Of a stretch of 64,000 bases of DNA, positions 11,783 through 27,718 are shown piece by piece. A program made the translations under genes and the position numbers. The notes below the pieces were generated by a model. That model made no database searches. It saw only the letters and a program-made list of their open reading frames with translations, and was not told where the DNA came from. This stretch comes from Candidatus Bathyarchaeota archaeon (GTDB lineage: Archaea; Thermoproteota; Bathyarchaeia; Bathyarchaeales; Bathycorpusculaceae), in the NCBI GenBank assembly GCA_963775465.1, contig CAVZIW010000003.1:128001-192000 (forward strand), written 5' to 3'. Position 1 is the first letter of the stretch; each line of letters begins with the position of its first letter.

Positions 11783-13195
11783 ATGTCAATGTTTAAAGAT
11801 ATCCCTGTTGAAGTTGGCGTAATCTACGAAGGAGAACGTATCCGAAGAAACGACATGCAAATCGAACTTGGCGGACCAACAGTCAAACAAAAGTTTGAAT
11901 TAGCAAAAGTAAAACCCATGGATCAGATCGAAGATGGCAAAATCACCATCATCGGTCCAGATATTAAAGACATGAAAGAAGGCGGCGCATATCCCCTTGG
12001 CATTCTTGTTGAAGCGGCAGGAGCAAAACTCGATGCAGGTCTTGAAGGTGTCATAGAAAGACGTATTCACGGTTACCTAAACTACATTGAGGGCTTTATG
12101 CACTTGAACCAACGTTATGACATCTGGATACGACTGGGCAAAAAATCTTTCCAAAAAGGCTTAAACAGCTTTGAAGCAATCGGCAAAGTTCTCTTCCGCT
12201 TATTCAAAAGTGAACTACCAATAATTGAAAAAGTGCAAATTACGTTCATAACAGACACCTCAAAACTAGACGAGCTATACCCAGAAGCAGTCCAAGCTTA
12301 CGAGGCACGAGATGCAAAAGCAAGAGGTCTCAAAGACAGTGAAGTTGATACATTCTACGGATGTGCACTCTGCCAATCATTCGCACCAAGCCACGTTTGT
12401 GTCATCACACCACAAAGATACAGTAACTGTGGCGCCATCAGCTGGTTTGACGGTAAAGCTTCCGCAAGCATCGATCCCAAGGGTCCAGTATTCGCAATTC
12501 CAAGAGGCGAAATGATCAACGAAGAAAAAGGCGAATTTAGTGGTGTTAACGAAGCAGCCAAGACACGTAGCATGGGTGAAGTTAACAAAGTATGGCTCTA
12601 CACAGCCTTTGATCATCCACACACTTCATGCGGATGCTTCGAGGCAGTAGCATTCTACATCCCAGAAGTCGACGGACTAGGTGTGGTCCAAAGAAACTTC
12701 AAAGGCGCAACCGTAAACGGCTTACCTTTCAGCACCATAGCAGACTCCGCAGCAGGCGGACGACAAATCGACGGATTCCACGGAATGTCCATAGAATACA
12801 TGCGAAGCAAGAAATTCTTTGCAGCAGACGGTGGTTGGAATCGCATTGTCTGGGTGCCTAAAGAAGTTAAAGATCGCGTTAAAGATTTTATCCCCGCAGA
12901 CATCGTTGATAAAATCGCAACTGAAGAAGATGCAAAAAACGTTGATGAACTCAAAGCTTTCCTCAAAGCAAAGAACCACCCAGTGGTTGCCAAATGGGAA
13001 ACAGAAGCAGCACCAGAAGCAGAAACAGCAGCAGTCCAAATATCCGAGGAAGCAGCAGGCACTATGATGCCAGTTGCAACAGCAGGCTCACTTCCAATAA
13101 TGGCAGGCGGATTCAAAATAATACTCAAAGACGCAAAAATTTACGCGAACAAAGTTATCATAACAACCGTCAAAGACAATAAAGACAAACGGTGA
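11783..13195 (+). CDS. cdhC: ACDS beta subunit (acetyl-CoA synthase)
   Basis: YEGERIR, ERRIH, FYGCALCQSFAP.HVC, HTSCGCFE, C-terminal GFKIILKDAKI module. Confidence 0.97.
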   Translation: MSMFKDIPVEVGVIYEGERIRRNDMQIELGGPTVKQKFELAKVKPMDQIEDGKITIIGPDIKDMKEGGAYPLGILVEAAGAKLDAGLEGVIERRIHGYLNYIEGFMHLNQRYDIWIRLGKKSFQKGLNSFEAIGKVLFRLFKSELPIIEKVQITFITDTSKLDELYPEAVQAYEARDAKARGLKDSEVDTFYGCALCQSFAPSHVCVITPQRYSNCGAISWFDGKASASIDPKGPVFAIPRGEMINEEKGEFSGVNEAAKTRSMGEVNKVWLYTAFDHPHTSCGCFEAVAFYIPEVDGLGVVQRNFKGATVNGLPFSTIADSAAGGRQIDGFHGMSIEYMRSKKFFAADGGWNRIVWVPKEVKDRVKDFIPADIVDKIATEEDAKNVDELKAFLKAKNHPVVAKWETEAAPEAETAAVQISEEAAGTMMPVATAGSLPIMAGGFKIILKDAKIYANKVIITTVKDNKDKR

Positions 13196-13201
13196 TATTC
13201 G

Positions 13202-14428
13202 ACGACGCACCACGATACAGACAAAAAAAAAGACGCTGAAGGCCTGAAACTAAGCGACGACTTACTTGCAGCCCTAGCAAAATTCCAGACAATCGAACTG
13301 GAAGACTTTCAACTTGACGCTAAAGAACTAGAAATCATCTTCGAAGCAGGTGCAGCAGGACAATTAATGCCAAAACTAAAGCTTCCAACAGCTATTACAG
13401 GTGGAAAACCAACTAGCCTGCTCCAAGCTTCTTTCTTACCCCCTATCGAAACCTATCCCAACAAAATCACCGAAGTAAAACTTGGGGCAACCAAAAGCGA
13501 AGGCGGCACACGCGGCAGATCACTTACTATAGGCGGAGAAGTCTCTCCTGCTTTCTACACTTTTGAAAACCCAATGCCACACAAACCAGTGGTTACATTA
13601 GACGTTTTCGACATGGAAATCCCATTGTCTAAAGCAGTCAAGATGCACGTTAAAGATGTAATTGGTGACCCGGCAGCATGGGCAAAACTTGCAGTTGAAA
13701 AATTCGGTGCAGACATGGTTACAATGCACTTAATCAGTGTAGACCCACTTCTCAAAGATGCGTCACCCAAAGAAGCATGCAAAACAATAGAAAAAGTCCT
13801 ACAAGCCGTAAACGTGCCACTAGTTATCGGGGGATGCGGAGACCCAGTTAAAGATACGGCAGTCTTCGAAGAAGTATGTGCTCAATTCCCAGGAGAACGG
13901 TTTCTAATCAGTTCAGTCACAAGGGATATGGATGTAGAAAAATGCGCAAAATTCATCAAAAAAGCAGGCCACGCCATACTCTCATTCACACCCATGGACC
14001 TTAACCTAGCACGTGAACTTAACAGGCGCCTCTACGACTTTGTTGCAAGAGAGGACATCGTTATGGACTTGACGACTGCCGCCTTAGGATACGGCTTAGA
14101 TTACGCGTTCACAAACATGGAGCGTGCAAGAATGGGTGGCTTAATGGGCGATTCTGAACTTGCGCACCCGATGTCGTCAGGTACAACTAACGCTTGGGCA
14201 GCCCGTGAAGCATGGCTCAAAATGGGCGCTGAATGGGAACCGCGTGAACTCAGAGGTCCCCTCTGGGAAGTAACAACGGCTATAACCCTGTTACTAACAG
14301 GCGTAGACTTGTTTATGATGATGCATCCCGCTGCAGTAAAAACCCTCAAAGATGTAACCAATTATTTAACAAGCGGTAAAAAAGCAGATCCAACCAAATA
14401 TGCAAGTTGGGTCAAAGTAAAAGCTTAA
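13202..14428 (+). CDS. cdhD: ACDS delta subunit (small corrinoid Fe-S subunit); true start lies upstream of the annotated ATG 13367 and is uncertain
   Basis: EVKLGATKSEGGTRG, PLVIGGCGD, ALGYGLDY, NAWAAREAW. The frame is open from 13196 and encodes a typical delta N-terminus (LLAALAKFQTIELEDFQLDAKELEI) with no ATG/GTG/TTG. Confidence 0.92.
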   Translation, partial: TTHHDTDKKKDAEGLKLSDDLLAALAKFQTIELEDFQLDAKELEIIFEAGAAGQLMPKLKLPTAITGGKPTSLLQASFLPPIETYPNKITEVKLGATKSEGGTRGRSLTIGGEVSPAFYTFENPMPHKPVVTLDVFDMEIPLSKAVKMHVKDVIGDPAAWAKLAVEKFGADMVTMHLISVDPLLKDASPKEACKTIEKVLQAVNVPLVIGGCGDPVKDTAVFEEVCAQFPGERFLISSVTRDMDVEKCAKFIKKAGHAILSFTPMDLNLARELNRRLYDFVAREDIVMDLTTAALGYGLDYAFTNMERARMGGLMGDSELAHPMSSGTTNAWAAREAWLKMGAEWEPRELRGPLWEVTTAITLLLTGVDLFMMMHPAAVKTLKDVTNYLTSGKKADPTKYASWVKVKA

Positions 14429-14434
14429 GGAGAT

Positions 14435-15868
14435 ATGACACAGATGAGCGAGAAAAAGAAAGCTGGACTAAAAGAATTAAGCCCAATAGACGTTTACAAA
14501 CTTCTCCCGAAAACTAATTGCAAAGAATGCGGTCAAGACAACTGCATGGCCTTCGCTACCAAAATTGTAAACCGCGAAATCGAAATTGACAGTTGCAAAC
14601 CCCTCCTTAAACCAGAAAACGCCAAAAACTATGCCAAACTCAAAGACCTCCTGAAACCTGCAGTCAAAGAAATTACCGTCGGCGTTGGAGACAAAGCCAA
14701 AAAAATCGGCGGAAAACTCGTTATGTACCGCCACGAATTCACTTACAAGAACCCAACAGCCATAGCAATTGACGTAACCGACGAAATGCCTGAAAACGAA
14801 GTTGTAACCCGCGTTCAAAAAGCAGAAAACTTCAGCTTCGAATATATAGGCAACACATTAAGACTCGATATGGTTGCAGTTCGATGTACTAGCGAAGACC
14901 CAGACAAATTCAAATCTTGTGTTAAGAAAGTATCGGAATCAACAAAGTTACCTATGATACTTTGCACCTTAAACCCCACCATAGCTGAAGCAGGCTTAAT
15001 GGCGGCACCCAAAGCACGACCATTACTTTTCGCAGCAACCACTGAAAACTGGAAAGATATGGCAGAACTCGCCTTAATGTACAACTGTCCCATAGTTGCA
15101 TCTGCACCAAACGATTTGAGCACACTTGTGTCCTTAGCAAAAACATTGATCGCTTATGGCGTAACCGACATAGTACTAGACCCTGGTACCTTCCCAGCTG
15201 AAGGAATAGGCGACACCATAAACAACTTCACAATGTTACGACGCGCAGCAACCAAAGGCGGAGAAGAACTTGCAGGCTTACCACTACTCGGTGTTCCAAT
15301 GGTTGCATGGACAGACAAAGGAGACACCGCAGAAGACCTGATCAAATGGCGCGAATCATACATCGCATCAATGCTTGTAGTTCGCTACGCAGATGTACTC
15401 ATAATGCACGGTAATGATGGTTGGTCTTTACTTCCAATAACAGTACTAAGACAAAACATCTACACAGATCCCCGCAAACCCGTCGCAGTTGCACCAGGCC
15501 TCAAAGTCTTCGGCGCCCCCGATGAAAACTCACCAGTCCTCTTCACCTCAAACTTCGCTTTAACCTACTATACAGTTGCCTCAGACATCGAAAGCAACAA
15601 AGTCAACGCCTACCTAATCGTTGTTGAAACAGAAGGCTCAGCCATAGACAGCGGAGTGGCAGGACGCAAACTAACCGCCGAAAAAGTAGCAGACGCAATA
15701 AAAGAAAGCAACATCGAAAGCAAAGTAAAGCATAAGAGAATCATCAGTCCAGGCAAAGCCTCACGCATAAGCGGGGAAATTGAGGAACTCAGCGGCTGGA
15801 AAGTCCTTGTTGGTCCACGCGATAGCAGTGAGATACCCAAGTATCTCATAGAGAAATGGCAACCATAA
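14435..15868 (+). CDS. cdhE: ACDS gamma subunit (large corrinoid Fe-S subunit)
   Basis: LPKTNCKECG..NCMAFA...C, RHE, IYTDPRKP, TSNFALTY, VGPRDSS. Confidence 0.97.
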   Translation: MTQMSEKKKAGLKELSPIDVYKLLPKTNCKECGQDNCMAFATKIVNREIEIDSCKPLLKPENAKNYAKLKDLLKPAVKEITVGVGDKAKKIGGKLVMYRHEFTYKNPTAIAIDVTDEMPENEVVTRVQKAENFSFEYIGNTLRLDMVAVRCTSEDPDKFKSCVKKVSESTKLPMILCTLNPTIAEAGLMAAPKARPLLFAATTENWKDMAELALMYNCPIVASAPNDLSTLVSLAKTLIAYGVTDIVLDPGTFPAEGIGDTINNFTMLRRAATKGGEELAGLPLLGVPMVAWTDKGDTAEDLIKWRESYIASMLVVRYADVLIMHGNDGWSLLPITVLRQNIYTDPRKPVAVAPGLKVFGAPDENSPVLFTSNFALTYYTVASDIESNKVNAYLIVVETEGSAIDSGVAGRKLTAEKVADAIKESNIESKVKHKRIISPGKASRISGEIEELSGWKVLVGPRDSSEIPKYLIEKWQP

Positions 15869-16176: not shown

Positions 16177-17658
16177 ATAGGCTGCGGTATCTTTGGTGCA
16201 ATAAACTACGAGAAACAACCAGTTTTTCCCTACGTTTACTGGGGTTTACGTGCTCAAAATCATCGAGGTCACCAATCTCATGGTTTCCTCACAAGCAACA
16301 ACAACCAATTCTTTACCTATAAAGCTCTTGATTTAGTTCCGCGTCTAAAGACAACCACTATAAACGAATGGTTCAGTCGCCTTCCAGGCTCAATAGGCAT
16401 CGGAAATGTGCGATATACAACCTCAGGAAAATGCGATGATGTCTCCATAATTGATGGCACCCAACCCGTCGTAGCATCTGCAGGTGGAATAAAGCTCGCA
16501 CTTTCGTTCAACGGCAATATCGTTAACACTTTGCCTCTTAGAAAAGAAATTAATCAAAACTTCGAAAACTTTCTCTACAACTGTGACTCAGACATCGTCT
16601 GCCACAAAATGCTCCTTGAGTTAAAAAATGGCAAAACTTTGGAGGATGCAGCCAGAAACGTTATGGAGAATTTGGATGGCGCTTTCTCCGTAACTGGACT
16701 AACTGGCAATGGTGAATTTTTCGCTTTCAAAGACCCCCATGGAATAAAGCCTCTGTGCGCGGGACATGACCCCAAAAGTAAAACCTATGCCTTTTCCTCC
16801 GAAACCGTAAGCCTTGATATGAACAGTTTTGAACGAGATTTTGAACTCACCCCAGGTGAGCTGGTAATCGCTTCCGAAAATGGATTCAAACGTACACAGC
16901 TAATCGATAATCCTCGCGAAGCTTTTTGCTGTTTTGAATACGCTTATTTTGCCCGACCTGACTCACGTTTCGACGGCAGATTTGTTTATGAAATACGTGA
17001 AGCCTTCGGAAGAAATCTCGTAAAAGAGTTCCCTGATGTTGTTAAGGACAGCGACATCATAATGTCGGTGCCTGAAACTGGGGACGACCCTGCCATGGGC
17101 GTACATGAAGCGTCAGGTCTGCGTTGGGAACGTTCATCAAGACGACACCGCTATGTAACTGAACGGGCCTTCATACTTCTTAACAATGAACGATACTCAA
17201 CCATAGATAAAAAAATCAACATCCTTGGAAGCAAAGTCGCCGGCAAACGAGTTATAGTAGTTGAAGACAGCGTAGTTAGAGGTGACACAACCAAAGTTAT
17301 AATAGAAAAACTCCGTAAAGCAGGCGCCAAAAAAGTTTACCTCTTCGTAACTTTCCCCCGTATCATCGGACCATGCTTTTACGGTATTGACATGTCAACT
17401 TACGGTCAACTGGTTGGCTCTAGACATGATCCAGAAGAAATAGCCAAAATTATCGGTGCCGACGGCGTATGTTATCAATCACTTGAAGGCTTAATTCAAG
17501 CCACTGGACAAACCGAAGGGCAACTCTGCTTGGCTTGTGTAACTGGCAAATATCCGACGTCATGCGCGCAAAGAATGGCAGATGTTATGAAAAAACGTTT
17601 CATTCAGGGCTACGAAGAAAAAGGCAGAATTTACGAATCTGAGGAAATTCAGCCGTAA
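16177..17658 (+). CDS. purF: Amidophosphoribosyltransferase; true start upstream of the ORF call (16408) and anomalous
   Basis: In-frame GCGIFGA...QNHRG from 16180, VRYTTSG, CFEYAYFARPDS, VEDSVVRGDT PRPP site, PCFYGIDM, CLAC Fe-S ligands. Confidence 0.93.
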   Translation: MGCGIFGAINYEKQPVFPYVYWGLRAQNHRGHQSHGFLTSNNNQFFTYKALDLVPRLKTTTINEWFSRLPGSIGIGNVRYTTSGKCDDVSIIDGTQPVVASAGGIKLALSFNGNIVNTLPLRKEINQNFENFLYNCDSDIVCHKMLLELKNGKTLEDAARNVMENLDGAFSVTGLTGNGEFFAFKDPHGIKPLCAGHDPKSKTYAFSSETVSLDMNSFERDFELTPGELVIASENGFKRTQLIDNPREAFCCFEYAYFARPDSRFDGRFVYEIREAFGRNLVKEFPDVVKDSDIIMSVPETGDDPAMGVHEASGLRWERSSRRHRYVTERAFILLNNERYSTIDKKINILGSKVAGKRVIVVEDSVVRGDTTKVIIEKLRKAGAKKVYLFVTFPRIIGPCFYGIDMSTYGQLVGSRHDPEEIAKIIGADGVCYQSLEGLIQATGQTEGQLCLACVTGKYPTSCAQRMADVMKKRFIQGYEEKGRIYESEEIQP

Positions 17659-17710
17659 CCGCTATAAAGAATTATCTTTAAGAATAGGTCGTCAAGGGGT
17701 TGTATCTCTG

Positions 17711-19123
17711 ATGGAAAAGATAGGAGTACTGTTGATTTCTTATGGTGCACGAGAAGTTGCTATGGCCGACACACTGCTTCGGAGTCAAAACTACCAGGTT
17801 GAGCTTTATATTGTTGACAAACAACGCAACCCCTTCAACGCAAACCACTCCATCAAACAAGTTGTGATTCCAAGTCTTAATATCCAGGAAACATGCAAAT
17901 TCGCTCAAGCCAACAAGAATAACCTTGACTTTGTTTTAGTCGGTTCAGAAAAACCAATAATTGATGGTGTGCGCGATCTAATCGAAAAAGAGACTGGCAT
18001 ACCCGTGATTTGTCCAATGAAAGCTTACGCAATCGAGAAAAGCAAGGTTGAGCAGCGTTTGCTCTTTGAAGAAATTGCGCCAGAAGCCAATCCGCGATTC
18101 AAAGTTTTTGACCCAGCTGATTATAAGCATAGAGACGTAAAAAGTGACGTTTACAAATGGCTTGATGAATTAGGCAACCAAGCTGTTGTCAAACCCGATA
18201 AGCCAGCTTTAGGAAAAGGTGTCGGTGTGTGGGGCGACCACTTTGTTAACCGAGAGCAGCTTTTTGAGTTTTTCATGTCTAACTTTCTGTACAGTTCAGT
18301 ACTAATCGAAGAAAAAGTTCCTGGGGAAGAATCCAGCTGCATAGGATTCTCCGACGGCAAGCACTTTATTGCTTTGCCGGATACTCGGGACTACAAGCGT
18401 GCATTCGACGATGATAAAGGTCCCAACACGGGCGGAATGGGCTCCTATAAAGACATCACCGATTATCTGCCTTTTTTAACTGCAGCCGACCGTGAACAAG
18501 AAATCGCTTTAGCCGACAAGATCTTTAAAGGCTGGAAAGCAAAAATCCCCGACGATAAAGCCCTTCGAGGGGTCCCGTTATACCTCGCGTTTATGCATAC
18601 AGGCAAAGGAATTAAGGTTCTAGAAATTAACAGTCGTCCAGGCGACCCCGAAATTATGAACCTTCTTCCTATAATCAAAGATGACTTTGTCGATGTATGT
18701 CTCAAGATGGTGGATGGCAGCCTCAAGGGTGTTGCCACAGATAAGTCTGCTACAGTTTTAACCTACAAAGTGCCTGCAGACTATGGTGGTTACCTGCAAG
18801 AATTCCCAGATAAAGTTGATAAATCCTCAATTGATGGTCCCGTCGACTTGATCAAGGCAGAAGCGCTCTCTGAAAAATTCGGCGATAACATTCGTATTTA
18901 TCCTGGCTCTATGGAACTTCGTGAAGGCAAAAATTATGCGTTAAAATCCCGTGCCATCGGAATCTTAGGTATTGCTGACAATATTGAAGAAGCTCGCCAA
19001 ATTAGCCTAGAAGGTGCTCAAGCAGTCAGGGGTGGTGCACTCTGGAACCGTACCGACATTGCAGCAAAACAACACATCCAAAGAAGCATCGCCCATATGG
19101 AGCTGTTGAGGCGCAAGGTTTGA
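17711..19123 (+). CDS. purD: Phosphoribosylamine-glycine ligase
   Basis: GARE.A, EKSK..R, VVKPD...GKGV, IEEK..GEE, DYKRAFDDDKGPNTGGMG, EINSRPGDPE. Confidence 0.95.
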   Translation: MEKIGVLLISYGAREVAMADTLLRSQNYQVELYIVDKQRNPFNANHSIKQVVIPSLNIQETCKFAQANKNNLDFVLVGSEKPIIDGVRDLIEKETGIPVICPMKAYAIEKSKVEQRLLFEEIAPEANPRFKVFDPADYKHRDVKSDVYKWLDELGNQAVVKPDKPALGKGVGVWGDHFVNREQLFEFFMSNFLYSSVLIEEKVPGEESSCIGFSDGKHFIALPDTRDYKRAFDDDKGPNTGGMGSYKDITDYLPFLTAADREQEIALADKIFKGWKAKIPDDKALRGVPLYLAFMHTGKGIKVLEINSRPGDPEIMNLLPIIKDDFVDVCLKMVDGSLKGVATDKSATVLTYKVPADYGGYLQEFPDKVDKSSIDGPVDLIKAEALSEKFGDNIRIYPGSMELREGKNYALKSRAIGILGIADNIEEARQISLEGAQAVRGGALWNRTDIAAKQHIQRSIAHMELLRRKV

Positions 19124-20196
19124 AACGAATTTTTGTTTCCGACTGCGAAGGGCCCATCTCAAAAAATGACAACGCGTTTGAGTTGACGGAAAATTTTATT
19201 CCAAACGGAGACAAACTCTTTGCAAACATAAGCAAGTACGACGATGTTCTAGCAGATGTTTTGCGTAAACCAAACTACTGCGCTGGAAGCACACTTAAAT
19301 TAATTTTACCTTTTTTCAAAGCCTATGGAATAACAGATGCACAGGTGGAAAAGTTTTCAGCCCAAAATATCATCTTAATCACGAACACGAAAACAACGCT
19401 AAGTTACGTGCAATCCATAACCTCTTCCTTTATTGTAAGCACCAGCTATGAACACTACATCAAAGCTCTCTGCAAAGCAGTGGATTTCCCCTACAAGAAC
19501 ACCTATTGCACCAAAGTGAACCTCAACAAATTAGGTATCACTCCACAAGAAAAGGAACGCCTCAAAGAAATAGCTCAAGAAATCACTCAAATGCCCCTAA
19601 TTGACATTCCTCCCAACACGAAAACTCCCAAAGACTTTTCTGCTAACGATAGGATGTCAATTCAAAGATTAAACGAAATTTTCTGGGACATAATCCCAAA
19701 AATGTTTGTGGGAAAATTCCTTCTCGATGTCGTAACAGTTGGGGGGGAACAGAAAGCTGACGCTATCCGTGACTCAACTAAACGATTATGTTCCAAGTTA
19801 TCAGATGTCATGTATGTGGGTGATAGCATAACAGATGGGGAAGCTTTCAAACTCGTCCGTAGCAACGGAGGTCTAAGTGTATCGTTTAACGGTAACGGTT
19901 ATGCACTTAAGAACGCAGAAGTTGCGGTAATGTCAGAAAGCAACCTTGTCATTGCTGTCATTGCTGACTTATTTTGCAAGTTAGGCACAAAGGAAAGTCT
20001 CAAAATATTCAATTCTTGGAACATAGAAGCGCTAAAGGATAAGGTGGACACGATCTTACTGAAAAAACTTTTAGCACAAAGCAATGGGTTGCCGAAAGTT
20101 CAAATAGTTACGGCAGAAAATATGGAATCACTCGTAGAAGAGAGCTGTGAATTCCGAAAAAAGGTTCGCGGAACGGCAGTAGGGAGACTTGGATAA
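19120..20196 (+). CDS. HAD-superfamily protein, EhaR-like
   Basis: FVSDCEGP...NDNAFEL, VSTSY, K, YVGDSITD HAD motifs; TTGA overlap with purD. Confidence 0.8.
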   Translation: MKRIFVSDCEGPISKNDNAFELTENFIPNGDKLFANISKYDDVLADVLRKPNYCAGSTLKLILPFFKAYGITDAQVEKFSAQNIILITNTKTTLSYVQSITSSFIVSTSYEHYIKALCKAVDFPYKNTYCTKVNLNKLGITPQEKERLKEIAQEITQMPLIDIPPNTKTPKDFSANDRMSIQRLNEIFWDIIPKMFVGKFLLDVVTVGGEQKADAIRDSTKRLCSKLSDVMYVGDSITDGEAFKLVRSNGGLSVSFNGNGYALKNAEVAVMSESNLVIAVIADLFCKLGTKESLKIFNSWNIEALKDKVDTILLKKLLAQSNGLPKVQIVTAENMESLVEESCEFRKKVRGTAVGRLG

Positions 20197-21113
20197 TGGG
20201 TAAACCAGTAATTGAAGATACTTTCATAGAAACCTTTGCAGGAATATTTTGTCGAGTAATCGTGACTGCAGATGATGATGACACTCTTCGTCATGCTGCT
20301 GAGGATTCCACTTCTACGCCATCAGTAGTTATCGGTCGAACAGAGGGTGGAATTGAAAAATACCTTACCCCAAACGAAACTCCCGACAAACGTATTGGTG
20401 CGATTTTGCAGTTCTGGGGCGAAATAAATCCTAAAAAAACCTTCCAAGAGTCCTTAAACAAGTTTGAAACTGAGCTTTCTTATCGCATCCGTCAAGACAT
20501 CCTCGTAAAACCATTCACGGCAGTTTTTGACGCTTTGCCAAATCCCGCGGGCAAACTAGATATGATGGAAAAGGTTGGCCATTGCGGGGACGGGTTCGAA
20601 TGGATCGAGAAACGCCATGGAAGAGAAGTTATTGTTGTGCCCTTAATGGTTCCTGACTTTGTTATTGAGCGATGCTTAGGTTATTCCCGTGGTGTGATGG
20701 GTGGAAACTTTTGGGTAATGTGTACCACTAAGCACGCATTAAAAACAGCGGGGGAAAAAGCTTTAGATGCTATCCACCAAATTAGCGGTGTCGTAACGAC
20801 CTTTGACATTTGCTCCGCTGGCTCAAAACCTGAAACCCATTTTCCAAAGATTGGACCAACTACAAACCATCTCTATTGTCCCTCGCTTAGGACTCGGTTA
20901 GGAAAAGAATCCAAGGTTCCAGAGGGTGTCAAGTACATCGCTGAAATCGTTTATAATGGTGTATCATTGGCAGCAATCAAAGAAGCCGCGAAAGTAGGGA
21001 TAGCCGCTGTCTTAGATGTTGAAGGCGTTATGCGGGTTTCCGCTGGTAACTACGACGGAAAACTTGGGCAATACAAAATTCAACTCAAGGAGCTTTTCAA
21101 TGACAAAGTTTGA
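20196..21113 (+). CDS. Formylmethanofuran:H4MPT formyltransferase paralog (Ftr2/EhaS-like)
   Basis: IEDTF.E.F, EGGIE, TPD.R.G, GGNF, SAGSK, EIV.NG, SAGNY.GKLG. Divergent RIRQDILVKPFT and GHCGDG segments differ from canonical Ftr. Confidence 0.85.
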   Translation: MGKPVIEDTFIETFAGIFCRVIVTADDDDTLRHAAEDSTSTPSVVIGRTEGGIEKYLTPNETPDKRIGAILQFWGEINPKKTFQESLNKFETELSYRIRQDILVKPFTAVFDALPNPAGKLDMMEKVGHCGDGFEWIEKRHGREVIVVPLMVPDFVIERCLGYSRGVMGGNFWVMCTTKHALKTAGEKALDAIHQISGVVTTFDICSAGSKPETHFPKIGPTTNHLYCPSLRTRLGKESKVPEGVKYIAEIVYNGVSLAAIKEAAKVGIAAVLDVEGVMRVSAGNYDGKLGQYKIQLKELFNDKV

Positions 21114-22014
21114 TGTAATAGGTTTTGGCGCTCTTAACGTAGATACTCTTCTAAAAGTTGACAAAATTGCTGTCGCAGAAGAGGAAAGTTACATACGTGA
21201 TTACACAGAGGCATGCGGCGGTTCAGCTGCAAACACTATGGTAGCGCTGGCTCGTTTAGGTTGCAAAGTGGGCTTCATAGGTAAAGTCGCGAATGACCAC
21301 GAAGGTAGCCTTCAAATTGATTGCTTCAAAACTGAAGGTGTAGACACAGGAGGAATTATCCAAACAAACAAAGGCAAAAGTGGAATGGTGCTTGGCTTAG
21401 TAGATAAAAAAGGTGCACGAGCACTCTACATCAACTCAGGTGTTAACGACCTAATTGAGCCACGCGAATTAAAGTGGGAATATGTTTCCCAAACGCAATT
21501 TCTTCACCTCTCATCATTTGTAGGCGAAAAATCTTTTCGAACACAAAAAAAACTCTTAACATCCTTGCCAAGTAACATCAAAATCAGCTTTGACCCAGGC
21601 TCAGTGTATGCGCAAAAAGGCTTCGCTGCGATTGAACCGATAATACAAAACTCCTATGTTATGATGCCAAACGCGTTGGAGCTTGAACTTTTAACAGGCG
21701 AAAGTAATTATCCGAAAGGCTCAAGGCATCTGTTAGATATGGGTGTTAAAATTGTTGCTGTCAAGCTTGGTAAGAAGGGTTGTTACATAACCAACGGTCA
21801 AGAAAAGCGTACTATTGAACCTTTTAGAGTTCCAGTAGCTGATACTACAGGTGCAGGTGACGCTTTTAACGCAGGCTTTTTGTACGGCTTAATCAACAAT
21901 AAACCTTTAGCTGAATGTGGTAAGCTTGGAAATTTTGTAGCTTCCCAAAGCATAATGAAAATGGGTGCCAGAGCTGGCTTGCCTTATGAAAAGGATTTAG
22001 AACTTTTTGGTTAG
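21100..22014 (+). CDS. PfkB/ribokinase-family kinase (EhaT-like)
   Basis: GALNVD, GGSAAN, FDPG, PN..E, DTTGAGDAFNAG; ATG 21100 with AAGGAG RBS. Confidence 0.88.
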   Translation: MTKFDVIGFGALNVDTLLKVDKIAVAEEESYIRDYTEACGGSAANTMVALARLGCKVGFIGKVANDHEGSLQIDCFKTEGVDTGGIIQTNKGKSGMVLGLVDKKGARALYINSGVNDLIEPRELKWEYVSQTQFLHLSSFVGEKSFRTQKKLLTSLPSNIKISFDPGSVYAQKGFAAIEPIIQNSYVMMPNALELELLTGESNYPKGSRHLLDMGVKIVAVKLGKKGCYITNGQEKRTIEPFRVPVADTTGAGDAFNAGFLYGLINNKPLAECGKLGNFVASQSIMKMGARAGLPYEKDLELFG

Positions 22015-22815
22015 TTCCTCGATTATACTTTGGAATATTAGTTTGCCGTCGCCGTATTGCCGTTTAAGGTTTTCTCGTGTCCAGTCCGGTTGTTGCCACC
22101 AGTACATGGCTCGCTCAGGGTGGGGCATTAAGCCGAATATATTGCCTTCTTTGTTGCATATCCCTGCGATGTCATGGAATGATCCGTTAGGATTGGATGG
22201 GTATTTGCCGTTGGCTTCTTCGCCTTTTTTGGCACAATAGCGAAAAACCAACATGTCATTATCCTCGAGTTTCTTTAGGAGCAACTGTTCTTTGTTTTTA
22301 GGGAAGAGCAGTCGCCCTTCTCCATGTGCTATCGGGAGTCGTATTGTTTTTCCCGCCGGGATTTTGCTTGTAAAAACACATTTACCTTGATTTTCTTGTT
22401 TCAAATAAACCCATTCACATTTGAAACCTGCTGGCTCGTTGGTTGTGAGTGTAGCTTCAGGGTAAATGCTTATGCCATTAAAACCTGGAAGCAATCCATA
22501 TTCTACGAGAATTTGAAAGCCATTACAGATGCCGAGTATTGGTCTGCCTTCATCAACAAATTTTTCCATTTCTTTGCCTAATTGAGTTGAGAGATGCCTA
22601 GCGAAGATGACGCCTGAGCGCACGTAATCACCAAACGAAAATCCTCCCGGAAACACTAGAATGTTGTAATCAAGCAGATTTTTTCTTTTGCTCAGCTCGT
22701 TAAAGTGGACTATTTCTGCTTTCACGTCGAGCTCTGTAAATGCCCGTTGCGTCTCTACATCACAGTTCGTTCCGCCAACACGTAAAACACAGACTTTGAT
22801 GTCTTCTATCTTCAA
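21997..22815 (-). CDS. purQ: FGAM synthase glutaminase subunit
   Basis: GTNCD.ET, PGGFSFGDY, GICNGFQ, AHGEG, NPNGS, MPHPER. Confidence 0.97.
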   Translation of the reverse strand: MKIEDIKVCVLRVGGTNCDVETQRAFTELDVKAEIVHFNELSKRKNLLDYNILVFPGGFSFGDYVRSGVIFARHLSTQLGKEMEKFVDEGRPILGICNGFQILVEYGLLPGFNGISIYPEATLTTNEPAGFKCEWVYLKQENQGKCVFTSKIPAGKTIRLPIAHGEGRLLFPKNKEQLLLKKLEDNDMLVFRYCAKKGEEANGKYPSNPNGSFHDIAGICNKEGNIFGLMPHPERAMYWWQQPDWTRENLKRQYGDGKLIFQSIIEELTKKF

Positions 22816-25199
22816 TTCAGTCCTTCCTCAGGGCTAAGGGTTTTCTTCCAACTGTTTCTAAGTGTTTCAAGAGAGGCGTCAATAACAACTTTTCCGTTCA
22901 AACCTTTGATTATTATTTTCTGTTCTTCGGTTACTTTGCCAATCAATGAGCAGACTTTGCCTTTCATCAAATCCTCAAAATCTTCTTTGTCTGCTTCTGT
23001 GACTTCAACGATGAAGCGGCTGTTAGATTCAGAAAATAGCACGAAATCATTTCGAGTTAATTCTTTGCCTGAAACCTTTTTGAGTTCAATTTCTAAGCCT
23101 AAACCACCTGCAAACGACATCTCTGCTACCGCAACTGCTAGTCCACCTTCAGAGATGTCATGGCATGATTTAATTAAGCCTCTATCAATTGCAGAGGTGA
23201 CCGCTTTGAAAGTTCGTTTGGCTTTGGCGCCTCTGACTTTGGGCACGGATGCTCCGAGGTAGCCTTTAAGTTTGTAGTATTCTGATCCCCCTAGCTCGTT
23301 GAAGGTGTCGCCAACAATGTATATACAGTTGCCCACAGTTTTAAGATCTACACTGATAGTATTTTGGATGTTGGGAATTACACCAATCCCCGTTATGAGC
23401 AGAGTAGGTGTCACGGGTCCCATTGGGGATTCGTTGTAAAGGCTGTCCTTGCCAGAAATAAACGGCGTCTTAAACGCAACAGCAAAATCGTAGCATGCCT
23501 CACAAGCTCGAACTAGAGAGCCTAACCGTTCTGGTTTTTCCGGATTACCCCAAGTGAAGTTATCCAAAAGCGAAATCCTCCTTCCGCCCACAGCGACGTT
23601 GTTGCGTATCGCTTCATCTATTGCCGAAGCTGCCATCCAATAAGCATCGATTTTGCCATAGTTAGGGTTCATGCCGCAGGAAATCGTTAGCCCTTTAAAT
23701 GAATCATCCAGGGGTTTGAGAACTGCCGCGTCGTTTGGTCCAGCATAATCGCCTTGCAAGGGCTTAAGGAGTGTGTTACCTTTGACTTCATGGTCATAGG
23801 TGCGTATCACAGATTCTTTGCTCGCAATGTTGGGGGCTGAAAGTAATCTTATTAGGGTTTCATTCAAATTAGTTGGTTCAGAAAATTCTGGTTCTTTGAG
23901 AATATTGTTTTTAATGGTTGCAACTTTGGAGCTTTGACAAGGATTGAACATAAACTCCATTTCGATATCACTAACTATGTCGTCTTTGTACTTGAGTCGG
24001 AGGCGTCTCTCGGGAATCAAAGTTCCAATTGCTGTGGCAACAACGTCTTCTTTTTCAAAAACTTCCATAACTCTCTCCAAGTTTTCAGGTGGGATTACTA
24101 ATAGCATGCGTTCTTGGGATTCGGATAGATAGATTTCCCAAGGGGCTATGCTCTGGTATTTCAAAGGTACTTTGGCAAGGTCTACTGATACACCGCAGTT
24201 GAATCGTTCAGCGGTTTCGCCTACCGCAGAAGATAAACCTCCACCGCCTATGTCTGTTACCGCCGAACCCAGCTGAAGGTCTCGAATCTCCACAACTGCA
24301 CGTTTAACTTTCTCTTCCTCGATGGGGTCAGCAATTTGAACAGCTGGGCGCGAGATCTCCTCAGATTTTTCGGTGAGTTCTGCTGAGGCAAAAGTCACCC
24401 CGTGGATGCCGTCGCGTCCTGTCTTGCCGCCTGCCAAAACCACAAAGTCGCCGACCTTACCATTTTTGGCGTATTTTTTTAGGGGTAACAACCCGATACA
24501 GCCACAGTAAACGATAACGTTTCCAGTATAACTGTCATCGAAGTATATGGCGCCATTGACGGTGGGGATGCCCATATTATTTCCATAAGCGCTGATGCCT
24601 GCTGTTACACCCATATATACGTACTTTGGATGTTTAACACCTGCTGGCAGCTTGTTGTAATCGAAATCTAATGGGCCAAAACCCAAAACGTCAGTGCATG
24701 CGATCGGGTCAGCCCACACACCCAAGATGTCTCGAATAACACCACCAACACCGGTAGCTGCACCCCCAAATGGTTCTACTGCAGAGGGGTGATTGTGAGT
24801 TTCCACTTTTGCTGCTATACCATACCCCATATCAAATTTCACGATACCCGCGTTATCTTCGAAAACGCTAACGCACCATGGCGCCCTTATTTGTTTGGTA
24901 GCTTTGGCAATGTAAGTTTTAAAGAGACTTTGGATTTCTTTGTTGTCGAGTTCAATTTTGCCTTTAAAGGTTTTGTGACAACAGTGTTCACTCCAAGTTT
25001 GGCTTATTGTCTGCAGTTCCACATCAGTTGGATTACGTTTTTCTTTTTTGAAATAAGCCTGAATGACTTTGAGTTCTTCTGCACTAAACCCAAGCGAAAG
25101 TTCACTGTTTATTTCGGCAAGCTGCTCTTCGGTGGCTCTTGCTATTGAAAACTCCAATATTGAGTTACTTTTGCGTTGAGTGATTAGTTTAGGGTTCAT
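22812..25199 (-). CDS. purL: FGAM synthase synthetase subunit
   Basis: QTWSEHC.HK, ETHNHPS, GGAATGVGG..RD, TGRDGIHG, SESQERM, FSES. Confidence 0.97.
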   Translation of the reverse strand: MNPKLITQRKSNSILEFSIARATEEQLAEINSELSLGFSAEELKVIQAYFKKEKRNPTDVELQTISQTWSEHCCHKTFKGKIELDNKEIQSLFKTYIAKATKQIRAPWCVSVFEDNAGIVKFDMGYGIAAKVETHNHPSAVEPFGGAATGVGGVIRDILGVWADPIACTDVLGFGPLDFDYNKLPAGVKHPKYVYMGVTAGISAYGNNMGIPTVNGAIYFDDSYTGNVIVYCGCIGLLPLKKYAKNGKVGDFVVLAGGKTGRDGIHGVTFASAELTEKSEEISRPAVQIADPIEEEKVKRAVVEIRDLQLGSAVTDIGGGGLSSAVGETAERFNCGVSVDLAKVPLKYQSIAPWEIYLSESQERMLLVIPPENLERVMEVFEKEDVVATAIGTLIPERRLRLKYKDDIVSDIEMEFMFNPCQSSKVATIKNNILKEPEFSEPTNLNETLIRLLSAPNIASKESVIRTYDHEVKGNTLLKPLQGDYAGPNDAAVLKPLDDSFKGLTISCGMNPNYGKIDAYWMAASAIDEAIRNNVAVGGRRISLLDNFTWGNPEKPERLGSLVRACEACYDFAVAFKTPFISGKDSLYNESPMGPVTPTLLITGIGVIPNIQNTISVDLKTVGNCIYIVGDTFNELGGSEYYKLKGYLGASVPKVRGAKAKRTFKAVTSAIDRGLIKSCHDISEGGLAVAVAEMSFAGGLGLEIELKKVSGKELTRNDFVLFSESNSRFIVEVTEADKEDFEDLMKGKVCSLIGKVTEEQKIIIKGLNGKVVIDASLETLRNSWKKTLSPEEGLN

Positions 25200-25447
25200 T
25201 TCTCTTCAACGACGCTTATGGTGTAATTGTCTTTGGTTGGATTAGCTAATAGACGCTTGCTCATTTCTTCTGCTTTTGCTTTGACTTCTTCAGGCGAGGA
25301 TGCATCTAAGGTAATAATATAGACTTTGCTGACATCTACAGATGCTACTTTGTAACCGAGTTCAACGAGTAATCGCGCTGTGGTTTCACCTTCAGGGTTA
25401 CTGTGCCCTGGTTTAAGGCTAACCTCAATTTTGGCAACATATTTCAT
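25196..25447 (-). CDS. purS: FGAM synthase PurS subunit
   Basis: LKPG..NPEG, LLANP..DNY; coupled to purL. Confidence 0.93.
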   Translation of the reverse strand: MKYVAKIEVSLKPGHSNPEGETTARLLVELGYKVASVDVSKVYIITLDASSPEEVKAKAEEMSKRLLANPTKDNYTISVVEEK

Positions 25448-25471
25448 AGATCCTTAAATTATGCACAGATA

Positions 25472-25486
25472 ATTTAAACACTTTCG
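25472..25486 (-). promoter_or_regulatory. Putative internal BRE/TATA promoter for purSLQ
   Basis: Minus strand CGAAAGTG-TTTAAAT about 25 bp upstream of the purS ATG. Confidence 0.5.
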
Positions 25487-25505
25487 TAAAGAAAACTACA
25501 AAATT

Positions 25506-26594
25506 TTACGTTAGAACCATATGTCTATTTCGATAATTGATTTCTACAACGCGATCTTTGTTTGTAACTCTGCCTATTTGTTCAGGATTCACATCGCATT
25601 GTTCAAGCACACTTATCGCTTGATCGATATCCGTTTTGTCCACAATTATTCCAAATCCCCATCCCATGTTAAATGTTTTAAACATCTCCTCATCCGTTAT
25701 TGTGTATCCCAGTTCGGCGGCTGTTTTCTGGATTAAGTTAAAGACAGGTTGCGGCTTAAAGTTGTCAAATTTGAAACCTATTTGGGGTGAATAGTTGGCT
25801 AAGTTATTAAATTTGGTAAATGCATCTCCCGTTATGTGCACGGCGGCTTTGACTTTTACTTGACGAACAAGTTTGAGAATTGGTTTAACATAAATTTTGG
25901 TTGGCTCCAAAACTTCAAGCGCAACTTCTCTATTCAAGCCCTCTGGGACGTCGTCTGGTGAATATTTTCCACCCCACTGTTTGAAGAGTATCTTTCGCAC
26001 CAGCGTAATACCGTTGCTGTGAACGCCACTGCTGGATAGCCCAATTATTGGATCATCTGGCTCTATGTTCTCTCCTGTTATGATTTCTTGGCGTTCCACT
26101 TTGCCCACGGAAGCCACAACCATATCAAATCCAGCATTTTGTGTAATGCCCTTTATGATTTCCGCTACGTCGCCTGTTTCTCCTCCTGTGACTGGGCACT
26201 CAGATAGATGAGCGCCTTCAATGATGCCTTTTAACCATGCATTTACTAATTTGGGTTCGCTGGCTTGCGCATGAATATTGTCGGCAATTGCTAAAGGTTT
26301 AGCGCCCGAACGGATGACATCATTGACTGCCATGGCAACTGCGTCAATTCCTATGGTGTCGTATTTCTGGGCTAATTCAGCGATTAGAACCTTTGTGCCA
26401 ACACCCTCAATTACAAGGTCCAAAAATGTGTTTTCGCCTACTGCAAAGATGTTGCCGTAAGGTAGATGAAGTACTCCGTCAAATTGGCTATGTCTGTATG
26501 TTTCCTGTAGGTTTTTCAGGTTTTTTTTGGATTCGACGCGTTGTTTACGGTTCACGCCTGCATCGTCATAGGTGTAGTTTTTGGACATAGACAC
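25506..26594 (-). CDS. purM: AIR synthetase
   Basis: YDDAGV, EGVGTK, GIDAVAMAVND, GGET, SSGVHSNG, HITG, TFNMG.G. Confidence 0.96.
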   Translation of the reverse strand: MSMSKNYTYDDAGVNRKQRVESKKNLKNLQETYRHSQFDGVLHLPYGNIFAVGENTFLDLVIEGVGTKVLIAELAQKYDTIGIDAVAMAVNDVIRSGAKPLAIADNIHAQASEPKLVNAWLKGIIEGAHLSECPVTGGETGDVAEIIKGITQNAGFDMVVASVGKVERQEIITGENIEPDDPIIGLSSSGVHSNGITLVRKILFKQWGGKYSPDDVPEGLNREVALEVLEPTKIYVKPILKLVRQVKVKAAVHITGDAFTKFNNLANYSPQIGFKFDNFKPQPVFNLIQKTAAELGYTITDEEMFKTFNMGWGFGIIVDKTDIDQAISVLEQCDVNPEQIGRVTNKDRVVEINYRNRHMVLT

Positions 26595-27640: not shown

Positions 27641-27713
27641 GCGGTTGTAGTCTAGCTCGGTAGGACATCAGCTTCCCAAGCTGAGTACCCGGGTTCAAAT
27701 CCCGGCAACCGCA
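27641..27713 (+). tRNA. tRNA-Gly (CCC), no intron, CCA not encoded
   Basis: Acceptor stem GCGGTTG/CAACCGC-A, anticodon arm TCAGC-TTCCCAA-GCTGA, T arm CCGGG-TTCAAAT-CCCGG. Confidence 0.97.
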
Positions 27714-27718
27714 CTCTC

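Follow-up and report, generated by a model that had tools for sequence, protein, structure and literature searches.

Two systems are known for the formylation of glycinamide ribonucleotide (GAR) to formylglycinamide ribonucleotide (FGAR), a universal step of purine biosynthesis. PurN transfers a carrier-bound formyl group to GAR with a folate cofactor, and the canonical enzyme needs no phosphatase or kinase as partner. PurT is a single protein which uses free formate via formyl phosphate and no one-carbon (C1) carrier. Here we analyse a purine gene cluster of a Candidatus Bathyarchaeota archaeon (assembly GCA_963775465.1) in which three coupled genes follow purD. They code for an EhaR-type protein of the haloacid dehalogenase (HAD) superfamily, a paralog (Ftr2) of formylmethanofuran:tetrahydromethanopterin (H4MPT) formyltransferase (Ftr), and an EhaT-type kinase of the PfkB family. 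The cluster lies in a stretch of 64,000 nucleotides (contig CAVZIW010000003.1, positions 128,001 to 192,000), referred to as the window. Gene content, synteny, phyletic pattern, fusions, clade structure and motifs make it probable that Ftr2 is the GAR formyltransferase of these organisms, drawing on H4MPT- or methanofuran-bound formyl groups. From this basis we infer substrate, donor, order of steps and any activity. The fold of Ftr2 is unrelated to that of PurT and differs from that of PurN.

A gap at this step has been reported before. Neither purN nor purT was found in two Archaeoglobi, four Methanobacteria and Methanopyrus kandleri, and Methanothermobacter is a purine prototroph although it has neither gene (Brown 2011, PMC3261824). 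This bears out what an earlier note on this DNA, made from the sequence alone, had stated about several H4MPT-using archaea. The anaerobic methanotrophic archaea ANME-1 were later added to these taxa (Chadwick 2022, PMC9012536). The same paper lists divergent Ftr2 paralogs in ANME-1, ANME-2a/b, Archaeoglobales, M. kandleri and M. marburgensis; its sections on these paralogs and on the purN/purT gap stand apart and leave the two unconnected. Going by the pertinent sections of both papers, the taxa without purN/purT are taxa listed with Ftr2, i.e., Archaeoglobales, M. kandleri, Methanothermobacter and ANME-1. In the full-text literature searched, with subscription papers outside it, there is no prior proposal of an Ftr paralog or EhaS as a GAR formyltransferase.

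Among the closest described systems is EhaR-EhaS-EhaT at the end of the eha operon of Methanothermobacter. EhaS is Ftr-like and EhaT ribokinase-like; they are cotranscribed with eha, and a canonical function is considered unlikely (Kaster 2011, PMC3087415). The name EhaR is due to the Joint Genome Institute (JGI), which calls close homologues of the window HAD protein 'energy-converting hydrogenase A subunit R'. The earlier note was right about such a triad in the eha operon. The same three families stand in the same order, and the host lineage likewise lacks purN and purT. The difference is the location: the Methanothermobacter genes belong to the operon of a hydrogenase and are interpreted as its subunits, whereas the window triad is inside a pur operon. 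Orthology of Ftr2 to EhaS is based on Chadwick 2022 and on the JGI names. For methanogens without cytochromes, formate is described as the source of purine C2 via PurP, with C8 unmentioned in the passage concerned (Kaster 2011, PMC3087415).

The triad and the gap in the genome

Open reading frames and family scans give the order purF-purD-HAD-Ftr2-PfkB on the forward strand, converging on purQ-purL-purS-purM on the reverse strand (window positions 16183-26594). The HAD protein (19120-20196) matches PF08282 with 24.9 bits, Ftr2 (20196-21113) matches PF01913 with 140.3, PF02741 with 178.3 and NF002554 with 326.7 bits, and the kinase (21100-22014) matches PF00294 with 182.2 bits (cut-off 25.8). 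At the junctions, as read from the letters, the TGA stop of purD shares its letters with the TTG start of the HAD gene (TTGA), and the TAA stop of the latter with the ATG of Ftr2 (TAATG). The ATG of the kinase at 21100 is inside Ftr2, the stop of which is at 21111-21113, an overlap of 14 nt. All three overlaps are exactly those claimed earlier. The span 17711-22014, previously given for the triad, does hold the genes named, but it describes purD plus triad since 17711 is the start of purD. As had also been stated, the cluster is complete from phosphoribosyl pyrophosphate to aminoimidazole ribonucleotide (purF, purD and purQLSM are found) except for the step from GAR to FGAR.

No enzyme for the missing step was found elsewhere in the genome (2.42 Mb, 15 contigs, 92% complete). 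For PurN, no match to PF00551 (Formyl_trans_N) was found in this 92% complete genome; in a control the same search matched 12 of 14 named genomes. For PurT, the best TIGR01142 score in the genome is 47.7 bits against a cut-off of 502, compared with 224-302 bits in Bathyarchaeia of the PurT type. The weak matches to the PurT profile proved to be CarB and an MfnD-like methanofuran ligase. A tblastn search of the host genome with a Bathyarchaeial PurT (genome G293), a PurN-like protein and FolD gave no match. The GAR formylation gap of the host is therefore real at the genome level. The earlier note had named a genomic purN or purT, and an Ftr present as the only copy, as findings that would speak against its proposal. 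Neither purN nor purT was found in the genome searches, and a second, canonical Ftr (Ftr1) is encoded on contig 12 (PF01913 189 bits; 142 bits for the window copy in the same genome search). FwdC and Mch are also encoded, and because Ftr1, FwdC and Mch are present both formyl carriers should be available in the host.

The second formylation of the pathway is accounted for. purH was not found in the host genome, which carries two tandem purP genes (C8:13681-15869, 33% identical to each other); with these, formylation of aminoimidazole carboxamide ribonucleotide is covered by PurP.

Distribution and replacement of the triad

Eighty loci from other genomes were found with a 19-row EhaR alignment (A2), and their neighbours were compared by tblastn. 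All but one (79/80) are from records of Bathyarchaeia/Bathyarchaeota, Bathycorpusculum, Nitrososphaerota or 'uncultured archaeon', the remaining one is from Thorarchaeota; the close homologues of the window HAD protein are in Bathyarchaeia/Bathyarchaeota records. The contexts in Methanothermobacter, Archaeoglobus, ANME-1 and Methanomassiliicoccales are outside this set, and statements on those groups rest on the papers. purD is immediately upstream of EhaR in 79/80 loci, and Ftr2 is immediately downstream in 79/80 (exception L094). The PfkB gene is next in 76; of the four misses three are contig ends and one is a real exception. A converging purQ is within the locus in 64/80. Conserved in 80 other loci, this gene order is more than chance. 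Synteny with pur genes, one of the checks named by the earlier note, is kept in 76-79 of the 80 loci and in two Asgard pur operons.

The Thorarchaeota locus (L061) is a 3.6-kb contig with EhaR-Ftr2-PfkB-purQ, the genes being 59-74% identical to those of Bathyarchaeia. It is probably a mis-binned stray contig; its metagenome-assembled genome (G318) shows no purD and served only as the centre of the Asgard genome draw described below.

In a sample of 301 Thermoproteota genomes at least 90% complete, EhaR (counted above 140 bits) is present in 45 of 51 Bathyarchaeia and in none of the 250 other Thermoproteota. Of the six Bathyarchaeia without EhaR, five encode a PurT-type protein of full length (224-302 bits); the sixth lacks EhaR and PurT alike. 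Conversely, PurT is present in 0/45 EhaR-positive Bathyarchaeia. A larger draw of 146 Bathyarchaeia has EhaR in 63 and PurT in nine, with an overlap of zero.

Two PurT-type genomes carry PurT among their pur genes. G293 has purF-PurF'-purD-PurT, converging on purQ-L-S-M, and G240 has purQ-purL-purF-PurF'-purD-PurT. Directly after purD, both encode an ATP-grasp protein of the PurT type, which scores 233-302 bits with TIGR01142 and, in G240, 53.8 bits with PurT_C. PurT is away from pur genes in the remaining three genomes of this type, one such locus being a 5.2-kb contig. All five are without a close PfkB homologue (best 63 bits versus 347 bits in G047, a triad-type genome of the same family), and four of the five have exactly one Ftr, of the Ftr1 type. 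PurT occupies the slot of the triad in G293 and G240, and all three triad genes vanish together where PurT is present. Since the PurT-type genomes manage without the triad genes, and four of them keep only Ftr1, the triad is dispensable for H4MPT/methanofuran metabolism.

A different exchange is seen in family f13 (G055, G087). Here a divergent PurN-like gene (PF00551 62-66 bits) comes after purF-purD, EhaR-PfkB-FolD form a separate cluster, and Ftr2 is at neither locus. A metagenomic protein of 599 residues (P0192) carries the same PurN-like domain (53% identity, E 2e-91) fused to an EhaR domain. This arrangement and this fusion suggest that with an apparently folate-like C1 carrier the formyltransferase family is switched, and the HAD protein and the kinase stay.

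The Asgard archaea extend the picture to a second phylum. In a sample of 151 genomes 103 have purD: 78 of these with PurN, three with PurT and 22 with neither. Of these 22, twelve possess EhaR, eleven of which have at least two Ftr matches; four more have at least two Ftr matches and no EhaR. In sum, at least two Ftr matches are present in 15/22 purD-positive genomes without PurN/PurT, as against 15/81 with PurN or PurT. One genome without PurN/PurT (G342) has a single low-scoring Ftr match (153.8 bits), which is outside the tree set discussed below. Two genomes (G338, G327) have purF-purD-EhaR-Ftr2-PfkB-purL-purQ. Three (G330, G341, G351) have purQ-purL-purF-purD-Ftr2, and no EhaR, PurN or PurT was found in them. 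Another four (G319, G331, G352, G359) show purQ-purL-purF-(purD)-EhaR-PfkB-purE-purB-purM-purP, with Ftr2 elsewhere. EhaR is within about 2.2 kb of purD in 17 of 20 Asgard loci fetched.

Many Asgard genomes have a gene for a 160-residue HEAT-repeat protein between purD and EhaR (L119:8126-8611, with equivalents in L120, L121, L143 and L144). G394 and G409 show the same neighbourhood with the HEAT protein, and only the EhaR gene is gone.

Enzymes, proposed chemistry and alternatives

Ftr2 belongs to the Ftr family as it carries both Ftr lobes (PF01913 and PF02741). It scores above the cut-off of NF002554 (326.7 versus 297 bits) and below that of TIGR03119 (227.8 versus 292.6 bits). Ftr2 matches Ftr chains of the PDB at E 1e-50 to 1.4e-45 and FhcD at 1.2e-25, and it shares with these proteins (PDB 1FTR, 1M5H, 6S6Y) the two-lobe architecture and the conserved oxyanion Glu. 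Canonical Ftr differs in context: Ftr2 is linked to purD and not to methanogenesis or Wood-Ljungdahl genes, and it is gone where PurT is present and Ftr1 kept. Within the host genome Ftr2 and Ftr1 are 37% identical. In a maximum-likelihood tree of 37 Ftr proteins a clade of 19 sequences with a support of 100/100 comprises, from both phyla, all copies linked to a triad or adjacent to purD and all second copies of genomes with EhaR. Outside of it are the copies with high scores and those which are the only Ftr of a PurT-type genome. The window protein does not group with the Ftr1 copies, and the tree thus gives it no orthology to canonical Ftr. Judged by this clade structure, Ftr2 is an old, distinct paralog of Ftr. 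A third small Asgard clade (L152, L154, L168, i.e., G330, G341, G359) is sister to Ftr2 (94/94), so some Asgard genomes have three Ftr paralogs.

The catalytic Glu (E250) is invariant in 13 Ftr1 and 19 Ftr2 sequences and aligns with PDB 1M5H in 'YEIV/AEIV'. The equivalent Glu252 of FhcD stabilises the oxyanion (Hemmann 2019, PMC6926001). Fixed changes from Ftr1 to Ftr2 are F146 to C, W162 to I, A240 to P and the deletion of a P-G-G loop; in addition, Ftr2 has an insertion near residues 74-84. By alignment, then, Ftr2 keeps the oxyanion Glu in a pocket which appears remodelled.

The EhaR-type protein displays D8-x-E10-G-P, S107-T108-S109, K212 and G234-D235-S-I-T-D239, all invariant or at least 90% conserved in the 19-row alignment. 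We take these residues to be the Asp nucleophile, the Ser/Thr, the Lys and the acidic GDxxxD motif of HAD proteins. The residue at D+2 is Glu instead of Asp throughout the family, Asgard and fused forms included. The closest structure by sequence is PDB 1Y8A (AF1437, an unpublished structure; E 1.8e-28). The predicted model (pLDDT 94.8) retrieves 1Y8A with Foldseek (TM 0.82/0.93), followed by HAD-IB proteins of the phosphoserine-phosphatase type, ThrH and MtnX. A role as phosphoserine phosphatase SerB was considered and dismissed: EhaR is absent from the 11 genome matches to TIGR00338, the best of which is at C2:19684 (88 bits).

Fusions with a PurK/PurT-type ATP-grasp region at the N-terminus and an EhaR domain at the C-terminus also exist (P0199 and P0216, about 900-970 residues; L147:10001-12895 and L148:10001-12913). 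As a link to PurT they were discarded, PurT being their best NCBIfam match at only about 33 bits over a local stretch; no similarity to PurD was found in them. Directly upstream of both is a conserved gene for about 150-165 amino acids.

The kinase contains 'GGSAANT' and 'DTTGAGDAF', presumably the motifs of the PfkB family. Its best NCBIfam matches are ribokinase and ribose-1-phosphate kinases, every one of them under its cut-off; ribokinase TIGR02152, for example, gives 169.2 bits and has an equivalog cut-off of 299.65. The sole other homologue in the genome is 25% identical.

What would these enzymes do? The primary amine of glycinamide and the aminomethyl group of methanofuran are chemically alike. 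Ftr2 would move the formyl group of N5-formyl-H4MPT (or of formyl-methanofuran) onto the glycinamide amine. The same-slot swap with PurT, the swap with a PurN-like gene, the purD-Ftr2 operons and the single deep clade argue for this assignment. By the same comparisons we think it rather likely that the triad is a purine module for the step from GAR to FGAR in H4MPT/methanofuran archaea without PurN and PurT.

For the HAD protein and the kinase we offer, following a suggestion of the earlier note, a role only tentatively, and it may well prove wrong. EhaR would remove the 5'-phosphate of GAR, Ftr2 would formylate the glycinamide riboside, and the EhaT-type kinase would re-phosphorylate the formyl-riboside to FGAR. 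Overall, these steps would amount to GAR + formyl-carrier + ATP + H2O → FGAR + carrier + ADP + Pi, at the same ATP cost as PurT. A formyl transfer near equilibrium would become irreversible since the phosphorylated product would no longer be a substrate of the transferase. Among reactions in which a formyl transfer requires a phosphatase and a riboside-type kinase at its sides, this would be the chemically simplest. There are precedents for its parts. HldE and GmhB combine a PfkB-family kinase and a HAD phosphatase acting on one ribosyl or heptosyl intermediate; adenosine kinase acts on AICA-riboside (aminoimidazole carboxamide riboside), and PfkB kinases can phosphorylate ribosides with small aglycones. 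We know of no de novo purine route via a nucleoside-level intermediate. Two observations speak against these steps: three genomes manage with Ftr2 alone, and EhaR is beside purD in Asgard genomes that bear PurN. EhaR and the kinase may instead have a role tied to PurD or to the handling of GAR, or serve as a scaffold. That a three-enzyme, ATP-spending route at the nucleoside level constitutes a third, non-homologous GAR formylation system, tying the Wood-Ljungdahl/methanogenic C1 pool to purine C8, is a conjecture to which we give even less credence.

A number of findings weigh against a purine-specific triad with Ftr2 as GAR formyltransferase. One is the presence of canonical PurN (170-210 bits) in 14 of 26 Asgard genomes with purD and EhaR. 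Thirteen of these 14 have at least two Ftr matches, and in G363 and G457 the second copy, where fetched, is inside the Ftr2 clade. PurN and the module are therefore not strict alternatives. E. coli has both PurN and PurT (Brown 2011, PMC3261824); such redundancy is no refutation, yet the phyletic argument is weakened. Further, six Asgard genomes have purD and none of PurN, PurT, EhaR and a second Ftr, and 74 of the 146 Bathyarchaeia have neither EhaR nor PurT, for which two alone this draw was profiled (two families make up 57 of the 74); these 74 genomes are the largest gap in the profile. Nor is the triad an obligate unit: Ftr2 follows purD without EhaR in three genomes, in many Asgard genomes the order is purD-(HEAT protein)-EhaR and Ftr2 lies apart, and in four it is purD-EhaR-PfkB-purE with Ftr2 elsewhere. 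At the two metagenome loci with ATP-grasp-EhaR fusions no pur genes were found within 10 kb. An EhaR homologue of 29% identity is in a record of Methanomethylophilaceae, a group not known to have the H4MPT pathway. Finally, formyl-H4MPT is not believed to be a good formyl donor, a statement made of the N10 form (Brown 2011, PMC3261824).

Measured against this, the earlier claims fare unevenly. The predicted phylogenetic profile agrees with the Bathyarchaeia as far as PurT is concerned, EhaR and PurT never occurring together (0/63, 0/9), and is weakened by the Asgard genomes having EhaR and PurN together. Likewise, the adverse case of a triad routinely beside purN/purT never occurs with PurT in the Bathyarchaeia sampled, and does occur with PurN in the 14 Asgard genomes. 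As to the central claim of GAR formylation by the Ftr paralog, slot swaps, purD-Ftr2 operons and one clade point towards it, and the co-occurrence with PurN points away. Save for this partial co-occurrence, the proposed function is well supported by comparative genomics.

Other explanations must be weighed by the same evidence. EhaR and the kinase might be a PurD-linked housekeeping pair concerned with salvage, repair or regulation of ribosyl intermediates of the phosphoribosylamine/GAR type, or with ribose phosphate supply; Ftr2 would then be a second ordinary Ftr serving an anabolic C1 pool, and another protein would formylate GAR. The linkage of purD to EhaR is indeed wider than that of Ftr2 (17/20 Asgard loci), and frequently PurN is encoded and Ftr2 located elsewhere; the kinase matches best to ribokinase and ribose-1-phosphate kinases, and the nearest folds of EhaR are small-substrate HAD-IB phosphatases and the phosphotransferase ThrH. 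Yet the three genes are jointly absent from genomes with PurT, three genomes showing no PurN/PurT have Ftr2 alone after purD, and a PurN-like formyltransferase substitutes for Ftr2 after purD and occurs fused to EhaR. We hold this explanation to be unlikely, though it is the one among the rivals to be taken most seriously. A PurP paralog as the GAR formylating enzyme, with the triad doing something else, appears quite improbable. The host does have two tandem purP genes which differ considerably in sequence, and the PurP-like proteins of cluster II are without demonstrated function. But Methanobacteriales without PurN and PurT have a single PurP, and cluster II PurP is also present in PurT-bearing Sulfolobales and Pyrococci (all Brown 2011, PMC3261824, in its treatment of PurP). 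Moreover, the same-slot swap of PurT for the triad would be left unexplained.

Ftr2 might also act like the bacterial formyltransferase/hydrolase complex Fhc, of which FhcD is an Ftr homologue, and pass formyl groups from H4MPT to methanofuran such that formate is freed both for PurP and for a so far unrecognised GAR enzyme dependent on formate. Free formate is a requirement of PurP (Kaster 2011, PMC3087415), FhcD works in this manner (Hemmann 2019, PMC6926001), and FwdC is encoded in the host. However, canonical Ftr1 already performs the transfer between H4MPT and methanofuran, PurT-type relatives, which need even more formate, are without Ftr2, and there is no part for a HAD protein and a ribokinase-like kinase; we rate this slightly lower still than the PurP paralog. 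Lastly, the triad could be made up of structural or assembly subunits of the energy-converting hydrogenase Eha, its location in pur operons being incidental. The name which JGI uses for the HAD family and the cotranscription with ehaA-R in Methanothermobacter (Kaster 2011, PMC3087415) are in keeping with it. Against it, the window, 79/80 related loci and Asgard operons embed the triad in pur and not in hydrogenase genes, and catalytic motifs are conserved in all three enzyme families. It has hardly any credibility. We thus prefer Ftr2 as the probable GAR formyltransferase.

Further genes of the locus and biological meaning

The flanking pur genes merit a few remarks. purD (17711-19123, forward strand) encodes GAR synthetase with GARS_N/A/C domains. 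It is a single copy in the genome and of a divergent type (TIGR00877 226 bits, below the cut-off of 288), unlike the EhaR-linked PurDs of Asgard archaea, which score 425-453 bits. PurD of the PurT-type Bathyarchaeia (L098/L099) is 27-29% identical to that of the window. For comparison, purL, purQ and purS of G293 are 56-59% and purF is 52% identical to the window genes, whereas purL, purQ and purF of G240 are only 34-41% identical; the contrast with PurD is clear in G293 alone. PurD and the formylation system may have been exchanged jointly. Between purF and purD, PurT-type Bathyarchaeia and two Asgard genomes have a second PurF-like gene, for 444 amino acids (L098:6365-7699, L099:7311-8645; also L141, L142). 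It has a phosphoribosyltransferase domain and a weak glutamine amidotransferase domain and resembles the Cys-less PurF' of Crenarchaeota (Brown 2011, PMC3261824).

purF (amidophosphoribosyltransferase; 16183-17658, forward strand) has an ambiguous start codon. The open reading frame from GTG at 16408 gives 291.7 bits with TIGR01134 (cut-off 350), the profile beginning at its position 71. The codon for the catalytic Cys, TGC at 16183 ('CGIFG'), is upstream of this GTG, and the frame between them is open. Ahead of TGC there are only GGC, ATA, AAA and CTG, preceded by a TAG stop. With no ATG, GTG or TTG before the Cys codon, either a non-standard start (ATA or CTG?) or an assembly error has to be assumed. 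By tblastn it is the only strong purF-like match in the genome.

On the reverse strand purQ (21997-22815; NF002252 316.8 bits, cut-off 298) overlaps the kinase gene tail-to-tail by 18 nt. It is accompanied by purL of the small type (22812-25199; AIRS, AIRS_C and FGAR-AT_linker domains), purS (25196-25447; PF02700 69.9 bits) and purM (25506-26594; TIGR00878 274.3 bits, cut-off 236). The sole tRNA of the window, tRNA-Gly(CCC), is at 27641-27714. Directly upstream of the pur cluster (11783-15868) are cdhC, cdhD and the gamma subunit of acetyl-CoA synthase/CO dehydrogenase; about 20 of the 80 related loci have a cdhE homologue no further than 8 kb upstream. The host is a Bathyarchaeion with the archaeal Wood-Ljungdahl pathway.

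The enzyme for GAR formylation has been reported missing since at least 2011 in Methanobacteriales, Archaeoglobales and Methanopyrus, well-studied prototrophs included. A named candidate with a clear assay makes this gap experimentally approachable. If the proposal is true, Ftr2 would add to PurN and PurT an unrelated third family of enzymes for a universal step. Ftr2/EhaS and EhaR/EhaT, now annotated as hydrogenase subunits, Ftr, ribokinase or hypothetical HAD proteins, would acquire a function, and metabolic models of methanogens, ANME, Bathyarchaeia and Asgard archaea would be corrected. If, in addition, dephosphorylation and re-phosphorylation enclose the formyl transfer, this would account for the position of ehaRST at the end of the eha operon, Eha being the hydrogenase which replenishes the formyl-methanofuran withdrawn for biosynthesis. 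A GAR formyltransferase of the Ftr2 type would also show how organisms without folate feed C1 units of H4MPT or methanofuran into purines.

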